DNA from: Escherichia phage vB_EcoM_G9062
Length of the DNA: 64,000 nucleotides
Sequence record: NC_054920.1
Strand: one strand, 5' to 3'
Notes under the pieces: generated by a model
The model's database searches: none
Seen by the model: the letters and a program-made list of their open reading frames with translations, nothing else
Told to the model about the DNA's origin: nothing
In this document: positions 10,161 through 22,941 of the stretch, piece by piece
Position numbering within the stretch: position 1 is the first letter of the stretch
Layout: every line of letters begins with the position of its first letter
Position numbers and translations under genes: made by a program

Positions 10161-10631
10161 TTAATCATGTTTCCACACCCCATCGGTATTTGACCAAAGT
10201 CGCTGATTATCTGATCCTCGCCACAGCTTTTTAGTCGGAAGATTTTTCTCATACTTCCCATCAATAATAACATCAACATATTTAAGCATTTCTAGCTGTT
10301 TAATATCTTCAAACTTATATCCTGTCCACAACCAAATGCTTTTATTGGGATAAAGATTTTTAATAGTTTGAACCACAGAGTGAATCACGTCTCTGTTATC
10401 AGGATAAAGAGGGTCACCTCCGGTTATAGTTAATCCTTCTATATAATCATTATTCAAACATTCAATCAATTGTTCTAGCGTTTCACCAGTGAATGGAATA
10501 CCATTTCTAGCATTCCATGTTGATTTATTATAACACCCTTCACATTTATGCAAACAACCTGTAACGAAAAGAACGACCCTGCAACCAGGGCCATTCACAA
10601 AATCACAAGGATAAAATCTATCATAATTCAT
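10161..10631 (-). CDS. nrdG: anaerobic ribonucleotide reductase activating protein (radical SAM)
   Basis: 156 aa; CLHKCEGC radical-SAM cysteine triad; immediately downstream of nrdD. Confidence 0.9.
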   Translation of the reverse strand: MNYDRFYPCDFVNGPGCRVVLFVTGCLHKCEGCYNKSTWNARNGIPFTGETLEQLIECLNNDYIEGLTITGGDPLYPDNRDVIHSVVQTIKNLYPNKSIWLWTGYKFEDIKQLEMLKYVDVIIDGKYEKNLPTKKLWRGSDNQRLWSNTDGVWKHD

Positions 10632-12445
10632 TGATGCTTAACCCTATGCATGATTTCTTTATTTTTACCGAGATTAAATCCGCGTTCGTTCGGGTTTCCA
10701 AGATATCCGCATGTTCTTCTTATTGTGTTCATCTTTTTAGGATCAGTTTCTCCACAAATAGAACAAACAAATCCGTTTTCAGTAGGAGTCATTTCATGGG
10801 TACTTCCGCATGTAAAACACTTATCTACTGGCATGTTAACACCAAAATAATCTAAATGTTGTACAGCATAATCCCATACAGCCTCAAGACCTTTTAGGTT
10901 ATTTTTCATATCAGGAAGTTCAACATAAGAAATGTGACCACCTGTCGCAATGAAATGATATGGCGCTTCACGAGAAATTTTTTCAAACGGAGTAATATTT
11001 TCTTCTACTGAAACGTGGAAACTATTAGTGTACCAGCCTTTATCGGTAACATCTTTTACACTTCCATATTTTTCTGTATCAAGTTTACAGAAGCGATAAC
11101 AAAGGTTTTCAGCAGGAGTCGAATATAAACTAAAAGCAAATCCAGTTCTTTCAGTCCACTGTTTAAGATGAGCATTCATTTTAGTTAAAATTTCTTGTCC
11201 AATATCACGACCGACAAGAATATTCAATTCGTGAATACCAATGTATCCTAGGGACACTGAACTTCTGCCGTTTTTAAATAACTCAATTATGTCATCATCA
11301 GGTTTAAGACGAACCCCGAATGCACCTTCTTGGTAAAGAATAGGAGCTACAGTTGCTTTAACACCCTTTAAAGAACTAATTCTACGCATCAAGGCTTCAA
11401 AGCACAGATCCATTCGTTCATTAAATAGCTCAACAAATTTCTGTTCATTGAACTGTGTTCCAATATAAGAATCTAATGCGATACGAGGAAGATTCAGTGT
11501 TACAACACCGAGATTATTACGTCCATCAAGAATTTCATTACCAGTCGAATCTTTCCATACGCTCAAGAAACTACGGCAGCCCATCGGAGAAACAGGAATA
11601 GATGAACCAGTGATAGCTTTATTGTTCTTAGCTGAAATAATATCAGGATACATCCTTTTGCTTGCACACTCTAGAGCAAGCTGCTTAATATCATAGTTCG
11701 GATCGTCTTTATAAAGATTAACACCTTCTTCAACGAACATAACAAGCTTAGGGAAAATAGGAGTTATCCCATCACGACCGAGACCTTTAATACGATTTTT
11801 CAGAATTGCTTTCTGAATCATTCGTTCAGTCCAGTCAGTTCCCGTACCAAATGTAATTGTTACAAAAGGTGTTTGCCCGTTTGAACTAAAGAGAGTATTT
11901 ACTTCATATTCATAAGCTTGAAATGCATCGTATACGTCTTTTTCTGTTTTAGATTGAGCATAATTCAACGCATCGGCGATTTGCCATTTTTCTGCATCCT
12001 CAATATGTTTTGCATAGGTGCGTTTAACATAAGGAGAAAGTACTTTATCTACATTCGCAAAAGTCGTTCCGCCGTATTGGTGAGAAGCAACCTGTGCAGT
12101 AATTTGTGCCATAATTGCAGTAGCAACGCCAATTGATTTAGGAGTTTCAATCTGTGCATTACCAAGCTTAAATCCGTTCTCAAGCATTCCTTTTAAATCT
12201 ACTAAACAGCAATTAGTAAATGGAAGAGCAGGGGAATAATCAATATCATGGAAATGAATAATTCCGCTTTCATGCGCTTTCATAATAAAAGACGGGACCA
12301 TATTTTTGGCAATGTGTTTAGACACAATACCAGCCATAAGGTCCCGTTGAGTTGGAAAAACACGAGAATCTTTATTAGCATTCTCGTTTAAAAGGTCTTT
12401 ATTAGTTTTATGAATCAATCCTTCAATTTCTTTTTCAATTGTCAT
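10628..12445 (-). CDS. nrdD: anaerobic ribonucleoside-triphosphate reductase (glycyl radical enzyme), intron-less
   Basis: 605-aa continuous ORF; C-terminal glycyl radical motif RRTCGYLG and CxxC zinc site; length equals spliced T4 NrdD. Confidence 0.9.
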   Translation of the reverse strand: MTIEKEIEGLIHKTNKDLLNENANKDSRVFPTQRDLMAGIVSKHIAKNMVPSFIMKAHESGIIHFHDIDYSPALPFTNCCLVDLKGMLENGFKLGNAQIETPKSIGVATAIMAQITAQVASHQYGGTTFANVDKVLSPYVKRTYAKHIEDAEKWQIADALNYAQSKTEKDVYDAFQAYEYEVNTLFSSNGQTPFVTITFGTGTDWTERMIQKAILKNRIKGLGRDGITPIFPKLVMFVEEGVNLYKDDPNYDIKQLALECASKRMYPDIISAKNNKAITGSSIPVSPMGCRSFLSVWKDSTGNEILDGRNNLGVVTLNLPRIALDSYIGTQFNEQKFVELFNERMDLCFEALMRRISSLKGVKATVAPILYQEGAFGVRLKPDDDIIELFKNGRSSVSLGYIGIHELNILVGRDIGQEILTKMNAHLKQWTERTGFAFSLYSTPAENLCYRFCKLDTEKYGSVKDVTDKGWYTNSFHVSVEENITPFEKISREAPYHFIATGGHISYVELPDMKNNLKGLEAVWDYAVQHLDYFGVNMPVDKCFTCGSTHEMTPTENGFVCSICGETDPKKMNTIRRTCGYLGNPNERGFNLGKNKEIMHRVKHQ

Positions 12446-12956: not shown

Positions 12957-13133
12957 TTAAGTATTGTAAAACATTCGATGCAATCGTTTATACTGTCGAA
13001 TCATCTTTTTAGTAGGACGAGAATAGGTTCCTACGCAAGTGGTCATATGAGGGTCCGTAGAATGTCCTTTAATAAAAAGTTTCCAAACCTTACCGCCATT
13101 TAACTTTTCAGTATAAACCAATTCGGTTTTCAT
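12957..13133 (-). CDS. mini-ORF (58 aa) whose last 15 codons duplicate the 3' end of the upstream gene
   Basis: ATG at 13133 with AUUUUA-rich leader; C-terminus MIRQYKRLHRMFYNT nearly identical to the end of ORF 13170..13673 (MIRQYKRLHQMFYNT). Confidence 0.3.
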   Translation of the reverse strand: MKTELVYTEKLNGGKVWKLFIKGHSTDPHMTTCVGTYSRPTKKMIRQYKRLHRMFYNT

Positions 13134-13243
13134 TAAAATGCCTTGTCAGAAAAAGAATTTTGAGTTTTTTCAAGTATTATAAAACATTTGATGCAATCGC
13201 TTATATTGCCGAATCATTTGGTCAGAAAAAGAATTTTGAGTTT
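12957..13243. repeat. imperfect segmental duplication (about 75-bp unit; one copy carries a 135-bp insert)
   Basis: gtcagaaaaagaattttgagttt occurs at 13145-13167 and 13221-13243; ttcaagtatt(g/a)taaaacatt(c/t)gatgcaatcg(t/c)ttata(c/t)tg(t/c)cgaatcat occurs at 12957-13005 and 13169-13216. Confidence 0.7.
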
Positions 13244-13673
13244 CAAGCCATTCAATATATTCTGCCGCAGCTTGCATCAGGTTACCTTCATAATCATCAA
13301 TATCTTTTTTCAATGCCACTTTAGCTAATGCATATGAAATACGTTCACCTTGAAAAGCGGCTTTAGGCTTCTTAACATCTTGGCTAGTTCTCTCTACAAC
13401 TTCCTCGATTTCACCATTTTCAACGGATTCAGTATTCCACAAACACCAATACGTAATTGGCTTATCATAGATGTTAATAATTTTTCCATCAGAAAGTTCA
13501 ATTTCAATAATTCCAGTGTCAGGCTCTATATCATCTTCACATTCTTTTGCAAGTTCACGAACTTTAAAGACAGTACCTGCACTAAGTTCCGGCCAGTAAT
13601 TACACAGCCCTGTATCAGCACGATTAATTCTAAACCACTTATCTACTGTAATCATGTCCCATCTCCATATCAA
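13170..13673 (-). CDS. hypothetical protein (167 aa), at the position of T4 pin
   Basis: ORF between gene 49 and nrdC; start overlaps the duplicated segment; identity with pin not verifiable. Confidence 0.4.
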   Translation of the reverse strand: MIWRWDMITVDKWFRINRADTGLCNYWPELSAGTVFKVRELAKECEDDIEPDTGIIEIELSDGKIINIYDKPITYWCLWNTESVENGEIEEVVERTSQDVKKPKAAFQGERISYALAKVALKKDIDDYEGNLMQAAAEYIEWLETQNSFSDQMIRQYKRLHQMFYNT

Positions 13674-13972: not shown

Positions 13973-14166
13973 TCACCGTATTTCCACTTAGAAATAGACT
14001 TTTCACCATTAGAATAATAAACTTCGAGTTTAGCACGATTATTTTTAATTTGAATAACCTTGGCTGTCATTAAAGTTCCATACCCATAGTAAACTGCAAC
14101 TTCATCACCTACATATACCGCGCTTCCGCGGTAATCATGGATATAATCAGTTCCTTCGAGCATCAT
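13951..14166 (-). CDS. hypothetical protein (71 aa)
   Basis: small ORF abutting nrdC. Confidence 0.35.
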   Translation of the reverse strand: MMLEGTDYIHDYRGSAVYVGDEVAVYYGYGTLMTAKVIQIKNNRAKLEVYYSNGEKSISKWKYGDCMVKLG

Positions 14167-14426
14167 TTAAAGTATTCCCGCAATTGGTCAAATCCACCAA
14201 TATGACTTCCATCAGGAGCAAATACCTGAGGCATTGTTAAGCCGATTTGAGTATCACGACCTAGTTTAGTCAGAAGCTCAGCGATTTTCTCATCATCAAA
14301 AACACCTTTTTCCGGCATAATGTTGATAAATTCAAACGGCTGTTTCTTCACGGTCAAAAGACGTTTTGCATTATCGCAATACACGCATTTGTGGATGTTG
14401 CTATCATAACCATATACTTTAAACAT
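14163..14426 (-). CDS. nrdC: glutaredoxin (T4 thioredoxin)
   Basis: 87 aa; MFKVYGYDSNIHKCVYCDNAKRLL... with CVYC active site matches my recollection of T4 NrdC. Confidence 0.9.
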   Translation of the reverse strand: MFKVYGYDSNIHKCVYCDNAKRLLTVKKQPFEFINIMPEKGVFDDEKIAELLTKLGRDTQIGLTMPQVFAPDGSHIGGFDQLREYFK

Positions 14427-14427
14427 A

Positions 14428-14673
14428 TTATTCCTTAATTCCTAATACTTGTTTAAAAGTCTCGTCGTAATCAAGACTTTGGCCTGTTTGTTCTTTATGT
14501 TTGTATATAATATCACTTACTTCTGATAGCATATTTTTATATGAACGAGTTAAAGCAGATTTAAGCACGCTGTATCTATCAGGAAATTTACCGTGTTCAT
14601 TATAATAAGCTATTGCTAATTCACGGACTGCCTTTTCAGCAGCCTCCATATATTCTTTACGCTTTGTCATTTT
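14428..14673 (-). CDS. hypothetical protein (about 81 aa from internal Met MTKRKEY)
   Basis: ORF track extends to 14811 but that part overlaps the next gene; internal start chosen. Confidence 0.3.
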
Positions 14674-14971
14674 CTTCTCGGTCAAATCGGTGTTTACAAT
14701 GGCGACATTTATAACGAAGATTACTAGTCTGCCAATGGACCAATTGCACCTGTTTAGTTCCACATTCAGGGCAATTAGGAACGTTTTTAGAAGCACGTTC
14801 GCGGCGTTCAACCATGACCATTACAGAATCCCAATTAATAGGGCTGCTATAATCATCACAACCATGAATCTTTCCACGCATTTCCAAATCGTCTTCTTCA
14901 CCGGCCATAATAATTTTAATTAAACTGGAATTACTTGAAGCTGCAATGTCTTCTAATAGACGCTTTTTCAT
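14657..14971 (-). CDS. zinc-ribbon protein (104 aa)
   Basis: CPECG ... CRHCKHRF paired CxxC motifs. Confidence 0.4.
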
Positions 14972-15897
14972 TTCAATACCTCAATAGCATTACGTAAACC
15001 ATTTGCTTTTGCATTAAGAGCTTTTAACAATTTGGTGTGTTCTGCAATTTGGGCTTCAACTTCAATCAAACGAGCATTGAGATATTCGCGTTCTTCACTC
15101 AGATTATCAATCTTTTCTACTTTAGGCTCTTTTACAACTGTCTTATATGTATTAGGGTTCTTCAGTTTAATTAGAATGCGTGAACTGTATAACATTGAAC
15201 CATTATCTTCGGTTTCGTCATACATTTCTACTACGTCCATGATTTTTAACATCATGCGGAGTTTATAAGACAACGAACGAATAGTTTTGTTGTGCTTATT
15301 AATTTCTTTAGCTGTCATGGTGCCAAGATTACGTGAGTAATAATAAGGAACCTGGATATTAATTAATACTGATGAACCACCTGGCTTGTGTGTTACTTCA
15401 TCAGCAATAACCCAGTCCTTAACATGAACTGTATTTGTACGGTCATCGCCCGCGGTAAATAGTTTGCGAGCATGCTTAAAAAGCATATTCACTTGGTCAT
15501 TGAATTGACAAGCAAATTTATCAGCAAATTTAGTTTCAGGAATGGTAGAAAACCAATCAGCCAAATGAGTCTTTTTAACATCATTAACAATAGTAAATTC
15601 AACCAAATCGGTTATAGATGTCTCAGATTTAATGAAGCTCGGCTTCATAAAGTTTTTAATGTTCTCATGAGCTACAGTAGAAGATAACATACGAGAACGT
15701 TTAAACCATTCAAGCAAATTGCCTAACGAATGAGAATAAGCGTTTTGAGTATCTTTACAGATATGATTTTCCTGACCAACATATTGAAGGAAATCACGAA
15801 GAATATTATTGATTACTGCTCTGTGCCCGATCTGATAATTACGGTGTTTAGTAATAAGACTGTCAAAATAATCAATATAATGTTTACGAGTTTTCAT
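14968..15897 (-). CDS. hypothetical protein (309 aa), member of tandem paralogue family with C-terminal coiled coil
   Basis: C-terminus [44 protein letters not shown] is heptad-like; same architecture as the two downstream ORFs. Confidence 0.5.
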   Translation of the reverse strand: MKTRKHYIDYFDSLITKHRNYQIGHRAVINNILRDFLQYVGQENHICKDTQNAYSHSLGNLLEWFKRSRMLSSTVAHENIKNFMKPSFIKSETSITDLVEFTIVNDVKKTHLADWFSTIPETKFADKFACQFNDQVNMLFKHARKLFTAGDDRTNTVHVKDWVIADEVTHKPGGSSVLINIQVPYYYSRNLGTMTAKEINKHNKTIRSLSYKLRMMLKIMDVVEMYDETEDNGSMLYSSRILIKLKNPNTYKTVVKEPKVEKIDNLSEEREYLNARLIEVEAQIAEHTKLLKALNAKANGLRNAIEVLK

Positions 15898-15949
15898 ATT
15901 CTTCTCACTTGGTTAATGGTTTATACTCCGAGCCATCCTTGGCTTTAAA

Positions 15950-16951
15950 TTACTTAATTAACTGTAAAGCTTGTTCAAGACGATCAAGACGATTAACGGA
16001 TTCTTCCCAAATCTTTTTAGCCTGCTCATATTCTTTCTGCGCTTTATTAGAAATTTCTAGAACTTCTTTATAAGCTTTTTCTAGTGCAATAACTTCTGGA
16101 CGAATTTCTACTGGTTCAGGCGAATCGTCAAGACATTCCATTAGTTCCTCAAGGGTAGTTTCTTCTTTAGGAGTATTCACAATTTCATCACATTTTTGTT
16201 GGTAAATTTCTTTATCAGTCGGTGAGTACGCACACTTTACTTCACGGAGACTAACTACAATTTTATATCCTTCCCAACCGCATATATTCTTAAAAGGATA
16301 AGTATGAATATTTTCTACTGTTTCCATACAAAGTAATGCGGTCTCTAACTGACGAGTTATATCGCTAGCAATTGAGAAAAATTTATTAATGTTCTTTTGA
16401 TTAGCTTCTGGTGTAAAAAATTCATAATTCACAAAAATAGCTGCTTTATTTTTATCAAGCTCATATTCTTTTATGATAATCATATCAGAAGCCCAAGGAT
16501 GGATTTGACGATAATCACCATAGCATAATTTAGAAGCTGATTTTAGAATTTGCTTCTTGAAAAGTCTAAAATTACTAATCCAACGACGAGTAAAAATATT
16601 CTCAGGGTCTTCTTTATTATTAAGATGATAAGAATTAACATCACCGAACCAACTGTATCCTACTACATCTTTAGTTCGTTTAATTTCTTTCCCAAATTTA
16701 CCAAGAATATCTTGATTAACTAAATATGAAAGAAGACGAGAACCTTTAAAAGTTTCCTTAATATCATCTTTATATTCGCGACTAGAAATTTTATGAACTT
16801 CATGAATAAATTTGCTTGAAGAAACAATACTTGCATCAATATTATTGAGCCATTGATTGATAATGGAAATAACACTATTCTGACTAAACACAGGTTTAAC
16901 TTTATCATCAATAACGCTATTGAATGATTTGATATATTCGTTACGAGTCAT
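15950..16951 (-). CDS. hypothetical protein (334 aa), paralogue family member
   Basis: true start MTRNEYIK preceded by GAGGAG RBS (ORF track extension reads through the promoter); FRLFKKQILKSASKLCYGDY aligns with FIALFRKQLKQILSTASRLKGSD in ORF 17009..18028. Confidence 0.5.
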   Translation of the reverse strand: MTRNEYIKSFNSVIDDKVKPVFSQNSVISIINQWLNNIDASIVSSSKFIHEVHKISSREYKDDIKETFKGSRLLSYLVNQDILGKFGKEIKRTKDVVGYSWFGDVNSYHLNNKEDPENIFTRRWISNFRLFKKQILKSASKLCYGDYRQIHPWASDMIIIKEYELDKNKAAIFVNYEFFTPEANQKNINKFFSIASDITRQLETALLCMETVENIHTYPFKNICGWEGYKIVVSLREVKCAYSPTDKEIYQQKCDEIVNTPKEETTLEELMECLDDSPEPVEIRPEVIALEKAYKEVLEISNKAQKEYEQAKKIWEESVNRLDRLEQALQLIK

Positions 16952-16979
16952 ATTAATCTCCTCAGTAGAAAGTAAGAAC

Positions 16980-17009
16980 ATTATACCACATCCTTGTGGC
17001 AAAGTAAAC
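16980..17009 (-). promoter_or_regulatory. T4-type early promoter (minus strand -35 GTTTAC, -10 TATAAT) with inverted repeat in spacer
   Basis: plus gtaaac 17004-17009 and attata 16980-16985; spacer contains ccaca...tgtgg inverted repeat. Confidence 0.45.
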
Positions 17010-18028
17010 TAGTTTAGTGCATTTAGTGCATTGTTCAGTTTAGAACGTTGCTTCGTAAGATTTTTGACTTTTTCTTGAGCTTTTTCTAGCATCTTTTCAG
17101 CTTCTAACACTTCATTAGTTGCTTTAACGAGTTCATCATCTACTGCCTTGATAGACTTCTCAATCGCATCCGCGTGCCATTTTTCAACAGGTTTAAGACT
17201 CGGATTTTCAACAGGAAGAAAATTCACTTTGTTGAATTTCCATGTATCTTTATTACCTGAACTATACATCCAAAATTTAGGATCGTTTGATGAGTAATTG
17301 GATAAATTTAAGATATCTTGCACTTCCTGCTTTTTCTCTTGCGGGACTTCGTCCTTTCTCAAAAAATCGTATTTAAATGAAACGATCATATCAAGTTCAT
17401 ACGTTGTTGTATGTTCCCAATTTCGCTCAAAATGAGGTAAAATCTTAGACTGAACCGCGGCAACTACATCCATATACTTAAATGCTTCTGTCAACTGTGA
17501 TTTAAGGCATTCACAAATTGAAAGAGAATTTTTTGTATTAGGTTTAAAGCTAATTCGTGCAGTTCTGTTATTTTCTTTTAATGGTCTTACTTCCATCTGA
17601 AGAGTATAACCATCAAATTTCAGATTCTTTAAGTTAATATCAGAACCTTTTAATCGACTAGCCGTCGACAAAATTTGCTTTAATTGTTTACGGAATAGAG
17701 CAATAAATCTCCACTCAATACGATAATGATTTGGATTAAAAAATCCTGTTGATAAATCAACCTTACTCTGACCAACGCCTTGAACAAATAGAGGATTTTT
17801 ATAATCAATAGTTTTACAGAAATCGGTGAGCTGCTCACGAGCCGTCATTTGTGTAATATACCCCGCTTTACTAAAATGACGTAACCATTCACTGCTATTC
17901 ATATATTTAAAGTGAATATCACGATTAACTTTATCAGGGTCTAAATTATTTTGGCACAAAAATGTCATAACATCACGAGTATAACTGGCATTACGAACCA
18001 TATCTTCAATTTGAGAACGAGTTTTCAT
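17009..18028 (-). CDS. hypothetical protein (339 aa), paralogue family member
   Basis: shared internal motif with ORF 15950..16951 and C-terminal coiled coil VKATNEVLEAEKMLEKAQEKVKNLTKQRSKL. Confidence 0.5.
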   Translation of the reverse strand: MKTRSQIEDMVRNASYTRDVMTFLCQNNLDPDKVNRDIHFKYMNSSEWLRHFSKAGYITQMTAREQLTDFCKTIDYKNPLFVQGVGQSKVDLSTGFFNPNHYRIEWRFIALFRKQLKQILSTASRLKGSDINLKNLKFDGYTLQMEVRPLKENNRTARISFKPNTKNSLSICECLKSQLTEAFKYMDVVAAVQSKILPHFERNWEHTTTYELDMIVSFKYDFLRKDEVPQEKKQEVQDILNLSNYSSNDPKFWMYSSGNKDTWKFNKVNFLPVENPSLKPVEKWHADAIEKSIKAVDDELVKATNEVLEAEKMLEKAQEKVKNLTKQRSKLNNALNALN

Positions 18029-18036
18029 GGTGTTCC

Positions 18037-18939
18037 TTAAAATTTAAGTAAATCAACGATTTTAATTAATTTTTCACGCTCAGATTTAGCTTTACTACTC
18101 AATCCAGATAGTCTGAAAATTTCATCATCATATTGCTGAATAGAAATATTTAGCTCTTCAATCTGTTTATTAAAATAATCAATTTGTTCAGAATGTTTTT
18201 CGTTACTACGAACTGGTACAGGTTTTGTAGGCAATTTAGTTGAACTGGATTCATCCGGGCGATAAATTAAAATACAACTTGAACCAATAGGGCATTTTGC
18301 ACCAGATGAATATTCTAATGTTCCGGCTTCTTTTAAAACTTCAAAAGCTAAACAGAGATGATGCCCCATATTGACATAATCTGTAGAGTGAGCTCTGATG
18401 TAATAATCATCTCCACGAGTACTAAATTTAAAGCATTTAAGGTCTTCTGTATTATTGGTCTTAAAAATCATTTGTTTATCTAGACCCTTAGCTAATCGAG
18501 CGCCTAATGCTAATAATCGTCGTTGATTTTCCCACAAATCCTCAATCATTTGATCGAATGATAATTTTGGCATTAGTCGACCATAAAGGTCATATCCTTT
18601 ATTATAATTACGAAGGATTTCACTCGCGTTAATACGAGACAACGCTCCAATTTTATTAAGGGCTTTCATAATGCGATTAGATAAACCCATTCCAGACCCG
18701 TTTGTTCGTTGTAAATGTTTTTCTAATCCAAACCCAATATCAACTTTAAATTTATCTAAAATTTCAGCATGAACGTCTCTGTCAATAACATTCAAATCCA
18801 AAGTTGGGTTAAATCTATGAAAAAATTTATCTGGCTCTCCACGACGAAGTACAGTCCATTCATTCAATTTTTTATTAACTAAAGATTTAATTACTGCATT
18901 GACATTATTAATTACTACTGACATATTTTCCTCACTCAA
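18037..18939 (-). CDS. hypothetical protein (300 aa) with C-terminal coiled coil
   Basis: C-terminus FNKQIEELNISIQQYDDEIFRLSGLSSKAKSEREKLIKIVDLL; possible fourth family member. Confidence 0.45.
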   Translation of the reverse strand: MSEENMSVVINNVNAVIKSLVNKKLNEWTVLRRGEPDKFFHRFNPTLDLNVIDRDVHAEILDKFKVDIGFGLEKHLQRTNGSGMGLSNRIMKALNKIGALSRINASEILRNYNKGYDLYGRLMPKLSFDQMIEDLWENQRRLLALGARLAKGLDKQMIFKTNNTEDLKCFKFSTRGDDYYIRAHSTDYVNMGHHLCLAFEVLKEAGTLEYSSGAKCPIGSSCILIYRPDESSSTKLPTKPVPVRSNEKHSEQIDYFNKQIEELNISIQQYDDEIFRLSGLSSKAKSEREKLIKIVDLLKF

Positions 18940-19395: not shown

Positions 19396-19923
19396 TTATG
19401 CGAGTACCGTCTTTAACCGTTCTTCAAACTTCCGAAGAGTATTCTGGCGTTCAGCTCTTTGCTTTTTGTAAGTTTCAATACGCTCTGAAATGAGAGTGTA
19501 TCGTTCATTTACTGATTCTTTCATAAAATCAGGAATTTCACGAGAAGCTTTAATCTCGTCAAATTTATCAATAACTGCTTGCTCTTCAGCAATTAAGTTA
19601 TCATACATCAAAATATCTTTCTTGATGAACTCAATATCTTCTTGAGTTACACGAGATAATTTAGATGCTTTATCCTTTTTGTACTGTTCGTTAGTATCAC
19701 GAGACCAGTGTAATGTACGATTTTTATTCGTATTCTTGTAAATTTCTACAATACCAATCTCATCGATAATAACGATCCAATTCCAACGAGATTTGTAAAT
19801 TTGTCCTCCGTCAACCGTGATTTCACCTCCGATTGAGATGTCATTAAAGAACTTGCTTTGTGCTTCAGATTTAAATTTACCATCGTTGTAATTTACCAGG
19901 TTGAAAATATCTTTAGCGTTCAT
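19396..19923 (-). CDS. hypothetical protein (175 aa)
   Basis: ORF with GGAGGA RBS, downstream of PeSL-like promoter; charged C-terminus. Confidence 0.45.
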   Translation of the reverse strand: MNAKDIFNLVNYNDGKFKSEAQSKFFNDISIGGEITVDGGQIYKSRWNWIVIIDEIGIVEIYKNTNKNRTLHWSRDTNEQYKKDKASKLSRVTQEDIEFIKKDILMYDNLIAEEQAVIDKFDEIKASREIPDFMKESVNERYTLISERIETYKKQRAERQNTLRKFEERLKTVLA

Positions 19924-20388: not shown

Positions 20389-21375
20389 TTATTTCAGAAG
20401 AGTAACCTCAGCGATTTCTTCCCAACCGTTTTTGTCGGTCATAATAAAGTCAGCAAGATAAAGAGCAGTACGCAGTGAAACATTGCGTAAACGATTAACA
20501 TTAACTTTCATCCATGATAATGCTTTATAAGTTTCTTCATCAGAAAGACCGCGCTTTTGCATCATGTCGGTTGAAAGAATAACATCTTCAACCCTGACCA
20601 TAATTTCTTCATTAGTGTGAACACCCAAATCTAAATAAACTGAGCGGGACACTAATGCTTGTAAATGTGGAGCAAGTTTAGTACCGCGGTCTAATTCGCG
20701 GTCAATGTCAACGTTTGTGATAAAAACAATCGTTCCTTTAAATTCAAACTCACGGTCAATGCCTTTTTCTTCTAAGTAAGAAGATGCAGTGCTCCAGCAG
20801 ACTTTACGGGTCTCTCCAGTGTCCAGAGCAGCTTTTAGAAGATTAAGAATGTCCATATCAGAGAAAACATCCACATCATCAATCAAAAGGACAGAGTTCT
20901 CTTCACGATTATACCAAAGCTGCTCATAAAGACCAATACCAGAGATTTTACCATTAATGCTTTTATATTCAATGTATCCAATATCGTTTGCTTTATTTAA
21001 AGCTTTATCTAAAGAATACGTTTTACCAATACCTGCTGCGCCAGAGATAATTAATGAACGAATATTTCCATTAATAATACCATTCGTCATCATTCCCATA
21101 ACATTAAATCTTTTATTAATGCGGGTTTTCATATCTTCATATGATTCTTTAACTTCTTCAACTTTTACACCATCATATGAAATATCTGATTTGTAAACCC
21201 AAACACCACGACGTTTACCGTCAATTTCAACAAAAACTTTACCATCTCCTTGTGCATCTACCGGAGCATTATCTGGGAACCATTCGCCTAAGAGCTCAAA
21301 AGTTCCAGAGATTTCTTTACCGAAGTAGATACCCTTATTGATAGTTACAGTTTTCATTTTATTCTCCAATCTCAC
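20389..21375 (-). CDS. P-loop NTPase (AAA-like ATPase), 328 aa
   Basis: Walker A GAAGIGKTYSL and Walker B-like VLLIDDVDVF. Confidence 0.55.
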   Translation of the reverse strand: MRLENKMKTVTINKGIYFGKEISGTFELLGEWFPDNAPVDAQGDGKVFVEIDGKRRGVWVYKSDISYDGVKVEEVKESYEDMKTRINKRFNVMGMMTNGIINGNIRSLIISGAAGIGKTYSLDKALNKANDIGYIEYKSINGKISGIGLYEQLWYNREENSVLLIDDVDVFSDMDILNLLKAALDTGETRKVCWSTASSYLEEKGIDREFEFKGTIVFITNVDIDRELDRGTKLAPHLQALVSRSVYLDLGVHTNEEIMVRVEDVILSTDMMQKRGLSDEETYKALSWMKVNVNRLRNVSLRTALYLADFIMTDKNGWEEIAEVTLLK

Positions 21376-21426: not shown

Positions 21427-21690
21427 TTATTTTAACGTTCGCCAAATTTTTACTGCTTCACGGCGAGATACTTCTACAGCTCCAAGTTCTACAGCTTTTT
21501 GGCGTCGGCGAGCGTGTAAGTCATAATGTTTAATGCGTTTATCTTGAAACCAAGAACGTTTCATTCCTATTGCTTCTGCCATTTCATGAAGCTCTTCAAT
21601 ATCTCCATCAGTGAACATATGACAATTTTTAGTTGGATGACCGCGAAGTTTCCATCCATGATTCATTAAAACATCTACGTAAACTGTCAT
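21427..21690 (-). CDS. hypothetical protein (87 aa)
   Basis: ORF; no motif recognised. Confidence 0.35.
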   Translation of the reverse strand: MTVYVDVLMNHGWKLRGHPTKNCHMFTDGDIEELHEMAEAIGMKRSWFQDKRIKHYDLHARRRQKAVELGAVEVSRREAVKIWRTLK

Positions 21691-21836
21691 TGATTCTTCT
21701 CCAAATAAGTTTCGATAATTTTCTGAGCGAGATAAACTGCATTATCTTCAGTTGCATCTTCTAAGAAACTTTCAAAACACTCTGAAATTTCTTCTGTATC
21801 AATCAACTTTTTTACTTCAATTGGTGTAATTTTCAT
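21687..21836 (-). CDS. small hypothetical protein (49 aa from MKITPIEV)
   Basis: ORF track's upstream part is a read-through translation of the promoter; GGAAAA RBS before the internal ATG. Confidence 0.3.
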   Translation of the reverse strand: MKITPIEVKKLIDTEEISECFESFLEDATEDNAVYLAQKIIETYLEKNQ

Positions 21837-21873
21837 TTTGTTTTTCCGTTTAAGTGTTTGTTTTGATAGTTGT

Positions 21874-21903
21874 ATAGTACCATAAAGCTTTATGCTTGTA
21901 AAC
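21874..21903 (-). promoter_or_regulatory. T4-type early promoter cassette (GTTTACA ... TACTATAC)
   Basis: plus tgtaaac 21897-21903, atagta 21874-21879; upstream A/T tract ttttgtgaaaaattttt. Confidence 0.5.
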
Positions 21904-21926
21904 AATTTTGTGAAAAATTTTTGAAA

Positions 21927-21953
21927 TAAAAAAAGGGAGCCCGAAGGCTCCCT
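21927..21953 (-). terminator. intrinsic terminator (GGGAGCC-UUCG-GGCUCCC + U7)
   Basis: minus-strand perfect 7-bp stem, UUCG loop and UUUUUUUA tail, 2 nt after the stop of ORF 21955..22941. Confidence 0.65.
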
Positions 21954-21954
21954 A

Positions 21955-22941
21955 TCATTTATAATAACTTCGGTGGTTTTCAAGATAAACCCTCTCAAGG
22001 AAGTCATCCCAAAAACCCATGTCTACTTTTTGCTGCATACCGTTCTTAGAAGCTTCAGTAGATGCTGCTTCTACTTGATCGACCACATCTTCCAAAAACT
22101 CTTGAACCGTTTTAAATGGATGTTTACCCAACTTCACGTCGAGAATAAATGGAGCATCTTGGAGTGGATAAACCAAGTCACCAGTTTTGTAAATTTCCAA
22201 TAGTTGGAGTCCACCACGGCAAGCATGGCTCAGAGCTTTCCAGTCAATACCTTCATTGGCTTCGGCCTTACGAGCACGTTCACCGTATTCAGCATCTAAT
22301 TTGTTCAGTGACTGCTTAAGCTCAATAAGAGAAAGCGTTGTCTGATATTTACGACCCAACACTGTGTAGAACGTCTGTGGGCCTGTTTTCTCATGATTAT
22401 GGAACACCCATTCACAGAATTCGTTTTCTGGAAGACGATGCTTAATATCTTCAACTTTAGTACGACGCTGCTTAATAGAACCATCTTCTTGGTAATCAAC
22501 CCATTGCTCAGGGATTTGATTAACTACTTTCAATACATCACGTAATGCAGCCAAACGAGAACCCTTAACGCCGTATTTAGAAGCTTGCTTACGGACATAT
22601 CCTAAATAGGATTTCATGTTAGTCGTATAAAAACGAGAACGGTTGTCTTGAATAAACTTCCACACATCAGGCAAATCAGATTTAACCACTAGTTCAGGTG
22701 GAGTGTGAAGCATATCTAACGCTACAGTTTCACCATCTGCTGCTAATTTAAAGAAATATTTAAGACTGTATAGTTCATGGTCAATATCATCTTTAGTGTT
22801 TTTAGATGATGTGTTGTTAGTGTTTTTACTCATGTGCTCTTTAACATTTCCGATAAGAATATCACGAGCAGGAGGAACAAAGATTTCTTTAAAATCTACA
22901 TCAGATTCTGGGGGTAGAAGTTCCATAAAGATGACTACCAA
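21955..22941 (-). CDS. hypothetical protein (328 aa)
   Basis: large ORF in hypervariable block; start uncertain; no motif recognised. Confidence 0.45.
   Translation of the reverse strand: MVVIFMELLPPESDVDFKEIFVPPARDILIGNVKEHMSKNTNNTSSKNTKDDIDHELYSLKYFFKLAADGETVALDMLHTPPELVVKSDLPDVWKFIQDNRSRFYTTNMKSYLGYVRKQASKYGVKGSRLAALRDVLKVVNQIPEQWVDYQEDGSIKQRRTKVEDIKHRLPENEFCEWVFHNHEKTGPQTFYTVLGRKYQTTLSLIELKQSLNKLDAEYGERARKAEANEGIDWKALSHACRGGLQLLEIYKTGDLVYPLQDAPFILDVKLGKHPFKTVQEFLEDVVDQVEAASTEASKNGMQQKVDMGFWDDFLERVYLENHRSYYK

Follow-up and report, generated by a model that had tools for sequence, protein, structure and literature searches.

Four consecutive genes on the minus strand of Escherichia phage vB_EcoM_G9062 (sequence record NC_054920.1), the orthologues of nrdC.3, nrdC.4, nrdC.5, and nrdC.6 of phage T4, are concluded from sequence comparison to be homologous to one another, representing ancient tandem duplicates within a single superfamily restricted to T4-like phages (Straboviridae). 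The analysis covered one stretch of 64,000 nucleotides (hereafter the window, with position 1 at its first letter) of what proved to be a Tequatrovirus (T4-like) genome. We propose, with a probability of roughly 55%, that the family consists of early, cytoplasmic, nonessential, and nonenzymatic accessory proteins that would oligomerize via their C-terminal helices and would bind and neutralize host immune proteins. Experimental support comes from the action of nrdC.5 against the bacterial defense Dsr1, whereas direct binding, oligomerization, and an anti-defense role for the other three proteins are what we infer.

The array sits between nrdC (glutaredoxin, 14163-14426) and nrdC.7 to nrdC.10. 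Over its 4.1 kb, identity to Escherichia phage YUEEL01 is 99%, and matches were found in 655 phage records. All four open reading frames (ORFs) are present, and by position and sequence they are orthologues of the very T4 genes with which the first-pass annotation, made from the letters of the window, had suggested comparing them. They are listed here with their lengths, isoelectric points (pI), and the evidence for each, including ribosome-binding sites (RBS) and the mean predicted local distance difference test (pLDDT) of AlphaFold2 (AF2) models:

14968-15897, minus strand: nrdC.3 orthologue, 309 residues, pI 9.3 (ORF; T4 annotation; phrog_1435, E=5e-116; PF26897 Phage_T4_Y04OP on close homologues).
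15950-16951, minus strand: nrdC.4 orthologue, 333 residues, pI 5.9 (ORF; early promoter, GAGG RBS, and ATG at 16951; phrog_1435, E=2e-166; PF26897).
17009-18028, minus strand: nrdC.5 orthologue, 339 residues, pI 9.2 (Pfam DUF7235, 420 bits; 93% identity to T4 nrdC.5, the published anti-Dsr1 factor, PMC9391042).
18037-18924, minus strand: nrdC.6 orthologue, 295 residues, pI 9.1 (GAGG RBS 5 nucleotides before the ATG; phrog_2257; PF26899 Phage_T4_Y05B on homologues; AF2 pLDDT 77.5).

The coordinates first given for nrdC.3, nrdC.4, and nrdC.5 are correct. For nrdC.4, the order of early promoter, GAGG, and ATG confirms the start at 16951 and rules out a longer, mechanically called ORF. The fourth gene, initially placed with some hesitation at 18037-18939, is a real ORF, but its start is more likely the ATG at 18924 than the TTG at 18939, because a GAGG lies 5 nucleotides upstream of that ATG, immediately following the stop codon of nrdC.7. 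The DUF7235 model (PF23882) matched nrdC.5 over its full length with 420 bits (E=8e-126) against a gathering score of 30 bits, and gave no match to nrdC.3, nrdC.4, or nrdC.6, leaving nrdC.5 as the sole strict member of DUF7235. Both nrdC.3 and nrdC.4 are full-length members of phrog_1435 and PF26897, the latter assignment being precomputed on homologues (one at 99% identity to nrdC.4, and both the 333- and the 308-residue genes of a related contig) rather than scanned directly. nrdC.6 falls into phrog_2257 (E=9e-153), with PF26899 likewise precomputed on homologues at 96 to 98% identity.

Homology among the first three genes was established stepwise. A BLASTP comparison of nrdC.3 and nrdC.4 gave 25% identity (E=6.5e-6) with the match lying entirely within the N-terminal 229 residues, away from the coiled coil, and their family profiles aligned at 98% in hhalign; the two are evidently plain paralogues. 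Direct BLASTP found nothing significant between nrdC.3 or nrdC.4 and either of the other two genes, nor between nrdC.5 and nrdC.6, and profile methods were therefore needed. Family profiles of nrdC.4 and nrdC.5 aligned at 71% in hhalign, and a merged profile of nrdC.3 and nrdC.4 aligned with that of nrdC.5 at 90% (E=1.5e-6, 181 columns), a value that was still 86% after the last 62 residues had been cut from every sequence. Identity between paralogues across the family is as low as 11 to 25%.

For nrdC.6, an exhaustive search of 1.84 billion representative proteins with the nrdC.6 family profile returned only 14 proteins at E<=0.001, among which three (P0234, P0236, and P0237) are distant full-length relatives with 27 to 33% identity to each other. 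These proteins of other T4-like genera served as a bridge set, Xp, which was chosen by the nrdC.6 profile alone and compared after its coiled coils had been trimmed. The trimmed set aligned with nrdC.6 at 96.4%, with nrdC.4 at 92.4% (158 columns), and with nrdC.5 at 92.5% (151 columns), over overlapping and collinear regions, while the same set gave at most 0.3% against the families of the neighboring genes nrdC.8, nrdC.10, and nrdC.11. Reversed-profile controls likewise gave at most 0.3%, and in the comparison with bridge set X the reversed and unrelated-family controls gave at most 2.1%. Moreover, the curated DUF7235 model reached its threshold on two bridge proteins (30.2 and 30.7 bits, cutoff 30) and matched the core region of a third. 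We conclude that the membership of nrdC.6 is transitive but well controlled. A wider bridge set, X2, contains a 343-residue Acinetobacter phage protein and was not relied on; only results from X and Xp are used here.

The proposal of a tandem paralogue family, made for three or possibly four genes, thus holds for all four, including the uncertain fourth, through BLASTP, hhalign, trimmed profiles, the bridge proteins, and DUF7235. Pairwise alignment, suggested as a check, linked nrdC.3 and nrdC.4 directly (E=6.5e-6); profile-profile alignment added nrdC.5 and, by way of the bridge proteins, nrdC.6. The similarity extends beyond coiled-coil composition, given 86% between the merged nrdC.3 and nrdC.4 profile and nrdC.5, and 92 to 96% for the bridge links, with the tails removed.

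Further candidates for membership fared differently. The 343-residue protein that an Acinetobacter phage carries at the corresponding position aligned at no more than 4.4%, which gives it no sequence support, though Foldseek did match proteins from two Acinetobacter phages, Acj61 and Acj9. Proteins of about 260 residues beside single-copy members in Kanagawavirus, a Klebsiella phage, Moonvirus, Tegunavirus, and Lazarusvirus aligned at 2% or less and are nonmembers. nrdC.8 (19396-19923, minus strand; 175 residues) has a helical C terminus superficially like the tails of the array, yet it is not homologous: tried as a fifth member, it reached no more than 6.6% in the tail module and 0.7% in the body.

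Five collinear elements were aligned by MAFFT alone in 28 diverse members from 8 genera, namely, in order, motif 1 (S..LS...A...L..FG), motif 2 (N....LA..ARL..G.DR), a third helix (L..AL..M..V), a P.PV linker, and a tail ending in R.KL..A...LK. The common architecture consists of a variable N terminus, two conserved core helices, a variable β-rich middle, the third helix, the P.PV linker, and a C-terminal heptad module. Conservation follows this plan within the nrdC.6 family, where core and tail are 67% and 68% identical, respectively, versus 17% for the N terminus and 28% for the middle. An initial description of the proteins as a divergent N-terminal domain plus a heptad-rich C terminus was right about both parts but incomplete, as the conserved central core is also common to them. 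The two motif strings singled out at that stage are exactly opposed in hhalign (nrdC.4 residues 122-147 with nrdC.5 residues 105-130), and the motif is real and recurs in nrdC.3 and nrdC.6, hence in all four genes. The core helices lie as follows:

15643-15720, minus strand: nrdC.3 core motif 1 helix, NLLEWFKRSRMLSSTVAHENIKNFMK (hhalign of bridge set X with the merged nrdC.3 and nrdC.4 profile; superfamily alignment).
15442-15528, minus strand: nrdC.3 core motif 2 helix, ..FNDQVNMLFKHARKLFTAGDD (hhalign of bridge set X with the merged nrdC.3 and nrdC.4 profile; superfamily alignment).
16688-16762, minus strand: nrdC.4 core motif 1 helix, IKETFKGSRLLSYLVNQDILGKFGK (hhalign of nrdC.4 with nrdC.5; superfamily alignment).
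16511-16588, minus strand: nrdC.4 core motif 2 helix, RRWISNFRLFKKQILKSASKLCYGDY, one of the two strings first singled out (hhalign of nrdC.4 with nrdC.5; superfamily alignment).
17813-17887, minus strand: nrdC.5 core motif 1 helix, WLRHFSKAGYITQMTAREQLTDFCK (hhalign of nrdC.4 with nrdC.5 and with the bridge; superfamily alignment).
17639-17716, minus strand: nrdC.5 core motif 2 helix, EWRFIALFRKQLKQILSTASRLKGSD, the other of the two strings (hhalign of nrdC.4 with nrdC.5 and with the bridge; superfamily alignment).
18577-18672, minus strand: nrdC.6 core motif 1 helix, IMKALNKIGALSRINASEILRNYNKGYDLYGR (hhalign of bridge set X with nrdC.6; AF2 helices with pLDDT about 90).
18478-18558, minus strand: nrdC.6 core motif 2 helix, FDQMIEDLWENQRRLLALGARLAKGLD (hhalign of bridge set X with nrdC.6; AF2; superfamily alignment).

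The AF2 model of nrdC.6 (pLDDT 77.5, predicted template modeling score 0.65) runs from an N-terminal helical region through the motif helices, a β-hairpin, a helix, a second β-hairpin, and a low-confidence linker to two C-terminal helices, an order of secondary structure that agrees with the collinear elements of the alignment.

The heptad pattern of the tails exceeded that of composition-matched shuffles in all four proteins (nrdC.3, p=0.023; nrdC.4, p=0.0005; nrdC.5, p<0.0005; nrdC.6, p=0.0005). In tail-only hhalign, the bridge proteins aligned well with nrdC.5 and nrdC.6 and more weakly (45%) with nrdC.3 and nrdC.4. We propose that the tails may oligomerize, the available predictions being of monomers only. 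The modules are:

14971-15102, minus strand: nrdC.3 C-terminal heptad helical module (heptad p about 0.02; aligned tail).
15953-16102, minus strand: nrdC.4 C-terminal heptad helical module (heptad p=0.0005; aligned tail).
17012-17194, minus strand: nrdC.5 C-terminal long helix, residues 279-339 (AF2 helix 280-338, pLDDT 74-92; heptad z=5.8, 0/300 shuffles; tail-only hhalign with bridge set X, 95%).
18040-18204, minus strand: nrdC.6 C-terminal two-helix module with a break at the conserved RLSG turn (AF2 helices 242-271 and 277-294; heptad p=0.0005; tail-only hhalign with bridge set X, 97%).

Functional evidence for the family comes from T4. A T4 clone carrying compensatory deletions lost the ability to infect strain ECOR17 because of Dsr1, a SIR2-domain defense (Srikant, Guegler, and Laub, eLife 2022, PMC9391042), and plasmid-expressed T4 nrdC.5 restored plating of the deletion mutant on MG1655 carrying dsr1, an experiment that shows rescue and not binding (PMC9391042). 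The window protein is 93% identical to that of T4 and would be expected to overcome Dsr1 as well. nrdC.1 to nrdC.6 are among the T4 fragments that could be removed in a genome-reduction study (PMC9825161), and are thus dispensable on laboratory hosts. The early suggestion that the array takes part in an arms race against host defenses therefore has direct published support for nrdC.5 and agrees with a block that is dispensable and variable between phages; for nrdC.3, nrdC.4, and nrdC.6 an anti-defense role may be supposed. Scans against Pfam, NCBIfam, and PADLOC gave no above-threshold match beyond the family's own models, and so no enzyme or defense-related family, and sequence and fold searches of the PDB gave no match for the family. 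Two specific candidates were rejected: an acidic DNA mimic acting against restriction (Ocr- or Arn-like) does not fit the pI of nrdC.3, nrdC.5, and nrdC.6 (9.3, 9.2, and 9.1) or the just mildly acidic nrdC.4 (5.9), and an N-terminal SAM-like domain of tyrosine recombinases (Phage_int_SAM) in the motif 1 region matched in 1 of 28 members. That domain gave a subthreshold match in nrdC.3 alone, falling well short of the cutoffs in both Pfam (E=0.12) and NCBIfam (E=0.003).

The array varies widely between phages. A tblastn search of 50,697 phage records found nrdC.3 in 652, nrdC.4 in 552, nrdC.5 in 616, and nrdC.6 in 740, compared with 1310 for the conserved neighbor nrdC.10, and a search for related loci with nrdC.3 returned only close relatives. 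Tequatrovirus carries four copies, Mosigvirus and Dhakavirus three, Kanagawavirus, Tegunavirus, and a Klebsiella phage one, and Moonvirus probably one. Natural isolates also show losses and rearrangements. In phage ACG-C40 (L020 3397-3612), a single deletion has removed most of nrdC.3 to nrdC.5 and left a 71-residue nrdC.5 stub next to the nrdC.3 tail; in phage G8 (L004 6915-7950), nrdC.4 is split into ORFs of 158 and 193 residues; and protein P0120 is chimeric, its nrdC.5 and nrdC.3 parts meeting at KVN|MLFKHARK. The alleles of nrdC.3 fall into three classes, whose identity to the window copy is at least 94%, about 75%, and about 61%. Against T4, the window copy is 61% identical, versus 92 to 100% for the flanking genes, and it is mosaic, with 92% identity over residues 1-56 and 43% over residues 157-255. 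The window allele is nearer the Mosigvirus copy (79%) than that of T4, and the synonymous divergence (dS) between alleles is about 1, which points to an exchange of old lineages and not to rapid local divergence. At lower coordinates, nrdC.2 (14657-14971, minus strand) likewise has highly divergent alleles in close relatives: it is 95% identical to its T4 counterpart, 53 to 65% to those of the related loci L004 and L007, and 47% to that of a Mosigvirus locus (dS 0.6-1.0), so that the mosaic patch reaches beyond nrdC.3.

The gene-wide ratio of nonsynonymous to synonymous substitution rates (dN/dS) was 0.05 to 0.34, with nrdC.3, nrdC.4, and nrdC.5 above core neighbors (0.00 to 0.10) and never near 1. 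The variation would therefore stem from allele exchange, mosaicism, and gene gain and loss, and not from gene-wide positive selection; the paralogues first called "diversifying" do lie in a widely variable region, though not in the sense of selection for change across the gene.

Taken together, we propose that the core helices, the third helix, the P.PV linker, and the C-terminal heptad module would form a constant scaffold, in which the C-terminal helices may oligomerize the proteins, and that the variable N-terminal and β-rich middle segments would set specificity. In such a scheme, nrdC.5 would block Dsr1, a SIR2-type defense that depletes nicotinamide adenine dinucleotide (NAD), and the variable segments of nrdC.3, nrdC.4, and nrdC.6 might steer them toward different targets or toward variant forms of that one. 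Several observations weigh against this proposal. Direct hhalign of nrdC.6 against the merged nrdC.3 and nrdC.4 profile or against nrdC.5 is weak (2 to 8%), so that the membership of nrdC.6 rests on transitive links. The AF2 model of nrdC.5, built from a shallow alignment, is poor (pLDDT 43.5) and was left out of the fold searches, and the tail of the nrdC.6 monomer model forms a helix-turn-helix whose packing could be intramolecular. nrdC.3, nrdC.5, and nrdC.6 are basic (pI 9.1 to 9.3), which would also fit nucleic-acid binding. Gene-wide positive selection, looked for by dN/dS, was not found, nor with it any gene-wide sign of an arms race. The literature searched held no paper on the mechanism of NrdC.5, which leaves room for indirect action, and none on nrdC.3, nrdC.4, or nrdC.6, so that functional data concern nrdC.5 alone.

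This last point also speaks for an alternative that we regard as rather improbable, in which the family is genuine but counter-defense is confined to nrdC.5, with nrdC.3, nrdC.4, and nrdC.6 serving instead in host takeover through, for example, host proteins, the nucleoid, or metabolism. The extreme divergence of the paralogues leaves room for different functions, and dN/dS values below 0.35 are those of ordinary purifying selection; yet presence and absence, allele variation, copy numbers from 1 to 4, and dispensability fit the pattern of host-range and counter-defense genes, and a constant scaffold with variable inserts suggests a common mode of action. It is distinctly unlikely, in turn, that the family acts indirectly, with basic proteins masking a nucleic acid or a phage component that triggers defenses such as Dsr1. 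Such masking would agree with the net charge of +7 to +10 of nrdC.3, nrdC.5, and nrdC.6 (nrdC.4 being mildly acidic) and with a published nrdC.5 experiment that demonstrates rescue only (PMC9391042), but no nucleic-acid-binding domain recurs among the 28 members.

Very improbable is the absence of any real family, with coiled-coil low complexity and chance motif matches producing the resemblance, as the nonsignificant BLASTP of five of the six pairs and the weak direct hhalign of nrdC.6 might suggest; the trimmed profiles with 62 C-terminal residues removed, controls of at most 2.1% and at most 0.3%, a match between nrdC.3 and nrdC.4 wholly within the N-terminal 229 residues, and a DUF7235 model that matches bridge proteins picked by the nrdC.6 profile refute it. 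We give practically no credence to thioredoxin-like or nucleotide-metabolism proteins, a reading prompted by the "thioredoxin" label of these ORFs in many phage records, by the nrdC gene names, and by the neighboring nrdC, nrdD, and nrdG, since there is no thioredoxin or glutaredoxin match in Pfam or NCBIfam and no CxxC in the four translations, the nrdC.x names record only a map position after nrdC, and the nrdC.6 fold is predicted to be helical and ββαββ rather than that of thioredoxin. In many GenBank phage records this product name is spread over nrdC.3 through nrdC.11, apparently from the name of the locus, and is evidently an annotation artifact.

Beyond binding and neutralization by individual family members, we tentatively consider a broader possibility, with the odds against it, that Y04OP, DUF7235, and Y05B might constitute one Straboviridae-specific superfamily of modular counter-defense adaptors, in which exchangeable N-terminal and β-rich specificity segments would be borne by a constant helical scaffold and an oligomerizing tail, each paralogue or allele directed against a different immune protein (e.g., SIR2 or NADase systems). 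nrdC.3 to nrdC.6 would then be a programmable anti-defense island, with alleles moving between genera.

T4 is the best-studied phage, and most of its roughly 130 accessory genes are without known function. The nrdC.x genes have been known since the sequencing of the T4 genome; also already known are the pairing of nrdC.3 with nrdC.4 in Pfam PF26897 and the role of nrdC.5, published in 2022. The window nrdC.5 is the orthologue of T4 NrdC.5 (93% identity, 420 bits to DUF7235, PF23882, same genomic slot), whereas nrdC.3, nrdC.4, and nrdC.6 appear as its distant paralogues, alike in core helices and C-terminal module but with no DUF7235 match. PF26897 (nrdC.3 and nrdC.4), PF26899 (nrdC.6), and PHROGs 1435, 2351, and 2257 stand as separate families with function unassigned and no cross-hits recorded, and are merged here. 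The novelty is modest and would lie in uniting three Pfam and PHROG families in one superfamily, in its single-copy relatives across T4-like genera, and in the domain map.

DSAD1 of SPbeta-like phages is an inhibitor that binds the SIR2 defense DSR2, which depletes NAD. Its likeness to the nrdC family would be functional only, its source being another group of phages and its target DSR2, not Dsr1. Closer to hand, T4 tifA, dmd, and adfA of the "anti-TA" (toxin-antitoxin) island, and ipIII, are likewise early, nonessential, variable, and clustered, and their loss through compensatory deletions narrows the host range (PMC9391042). Those genes are small and mutually unrelated, in contrast to nrdC.3 to nrdC.6, which are tandem homologues of 300 to 340 residues with a common scaffold. 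Though the advance is incremental, the genes being long known and one function published, three neighbors of nrdC.5 that were formerly orphans become specific counter-defense candidates, and the conserved core and tail are marked out from the variable segments for dissecting how Dsr1 is neutralized. The locus also illustrates how a counter-defense repertoire may be reshaped as genes duplicate, are deleted, or exchange alleles between genera.

A consensus scan for T4 early promoters found 30 sites versus 32 expected by chance, and we therefore kept only to sites at which a T4 early promoter is already annotated. Two such sites bear on the array:

16980-17008, minus strand: T4 early-type promoter (TTTACT-17-TATAAT, TG-extended) driving nrdC.4 and nrdC.3 (consensus scan; sequence; the same site is annotated as an early promoter in phage ASO78A).
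19952-19980, minus strand: T4 early-type promoter upstream of nrdC.8 (consensus scan; the equivalent site is annotated as an early promoter in ASO78A).

The second is likely the source of a transcript that would extend from nrdC.8 through nrdC.7 and nrdC.6 to nrdC.5.

Elsewhere in the window, a 58-residue ORF (12957-13133, minus strand) downstream of pin ends in ...MIRQYKRLHRMFYNT, near-identical to the C terminus of the pin ORF (13170-13655, minus strand), ...QMIRQYKRLHQMFYNT, as though part of the 3' end of pin, the gene for a Lon protease inhibitor, had been duplicated. nrdD (10628-12445, minus strand) is an uninterrupted ORF of 605 residues, whereas T4 nrdD has a group I intron encoding I-TevII, and the phage therefore is one without the T4 nrdD intron. 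A 2026 paper on DRT1 found T4 nrdC.8 mRNA downregulated in DRT1-expressing cells and called nrdC.8 a nucleotide reductase, a label for which a Pfam scan of its sequence gave no support.

nrdC.10 (20389-21375, minus strand) encodes an AAA+/P-loop protein with subthreshold matches to AAA and STAND NTPase models, and its 1310 records, which include Vibrio, Aeromonas, and Acinetobacter T4-like phages and some jumbo phages, make it far broader in distribution than the array. The slot between nrdC.10 and nrdC.11 is variable: in the window it holds two ORFs (21427-21690 and 21687-22007, minus strand) of 87 and 106 residues that are not in T4 (13% best identity), and in a related contig it holds instead a 161-residue gene of the Mod_ADP_RT (ADP-ribosyltransferase-like) family.

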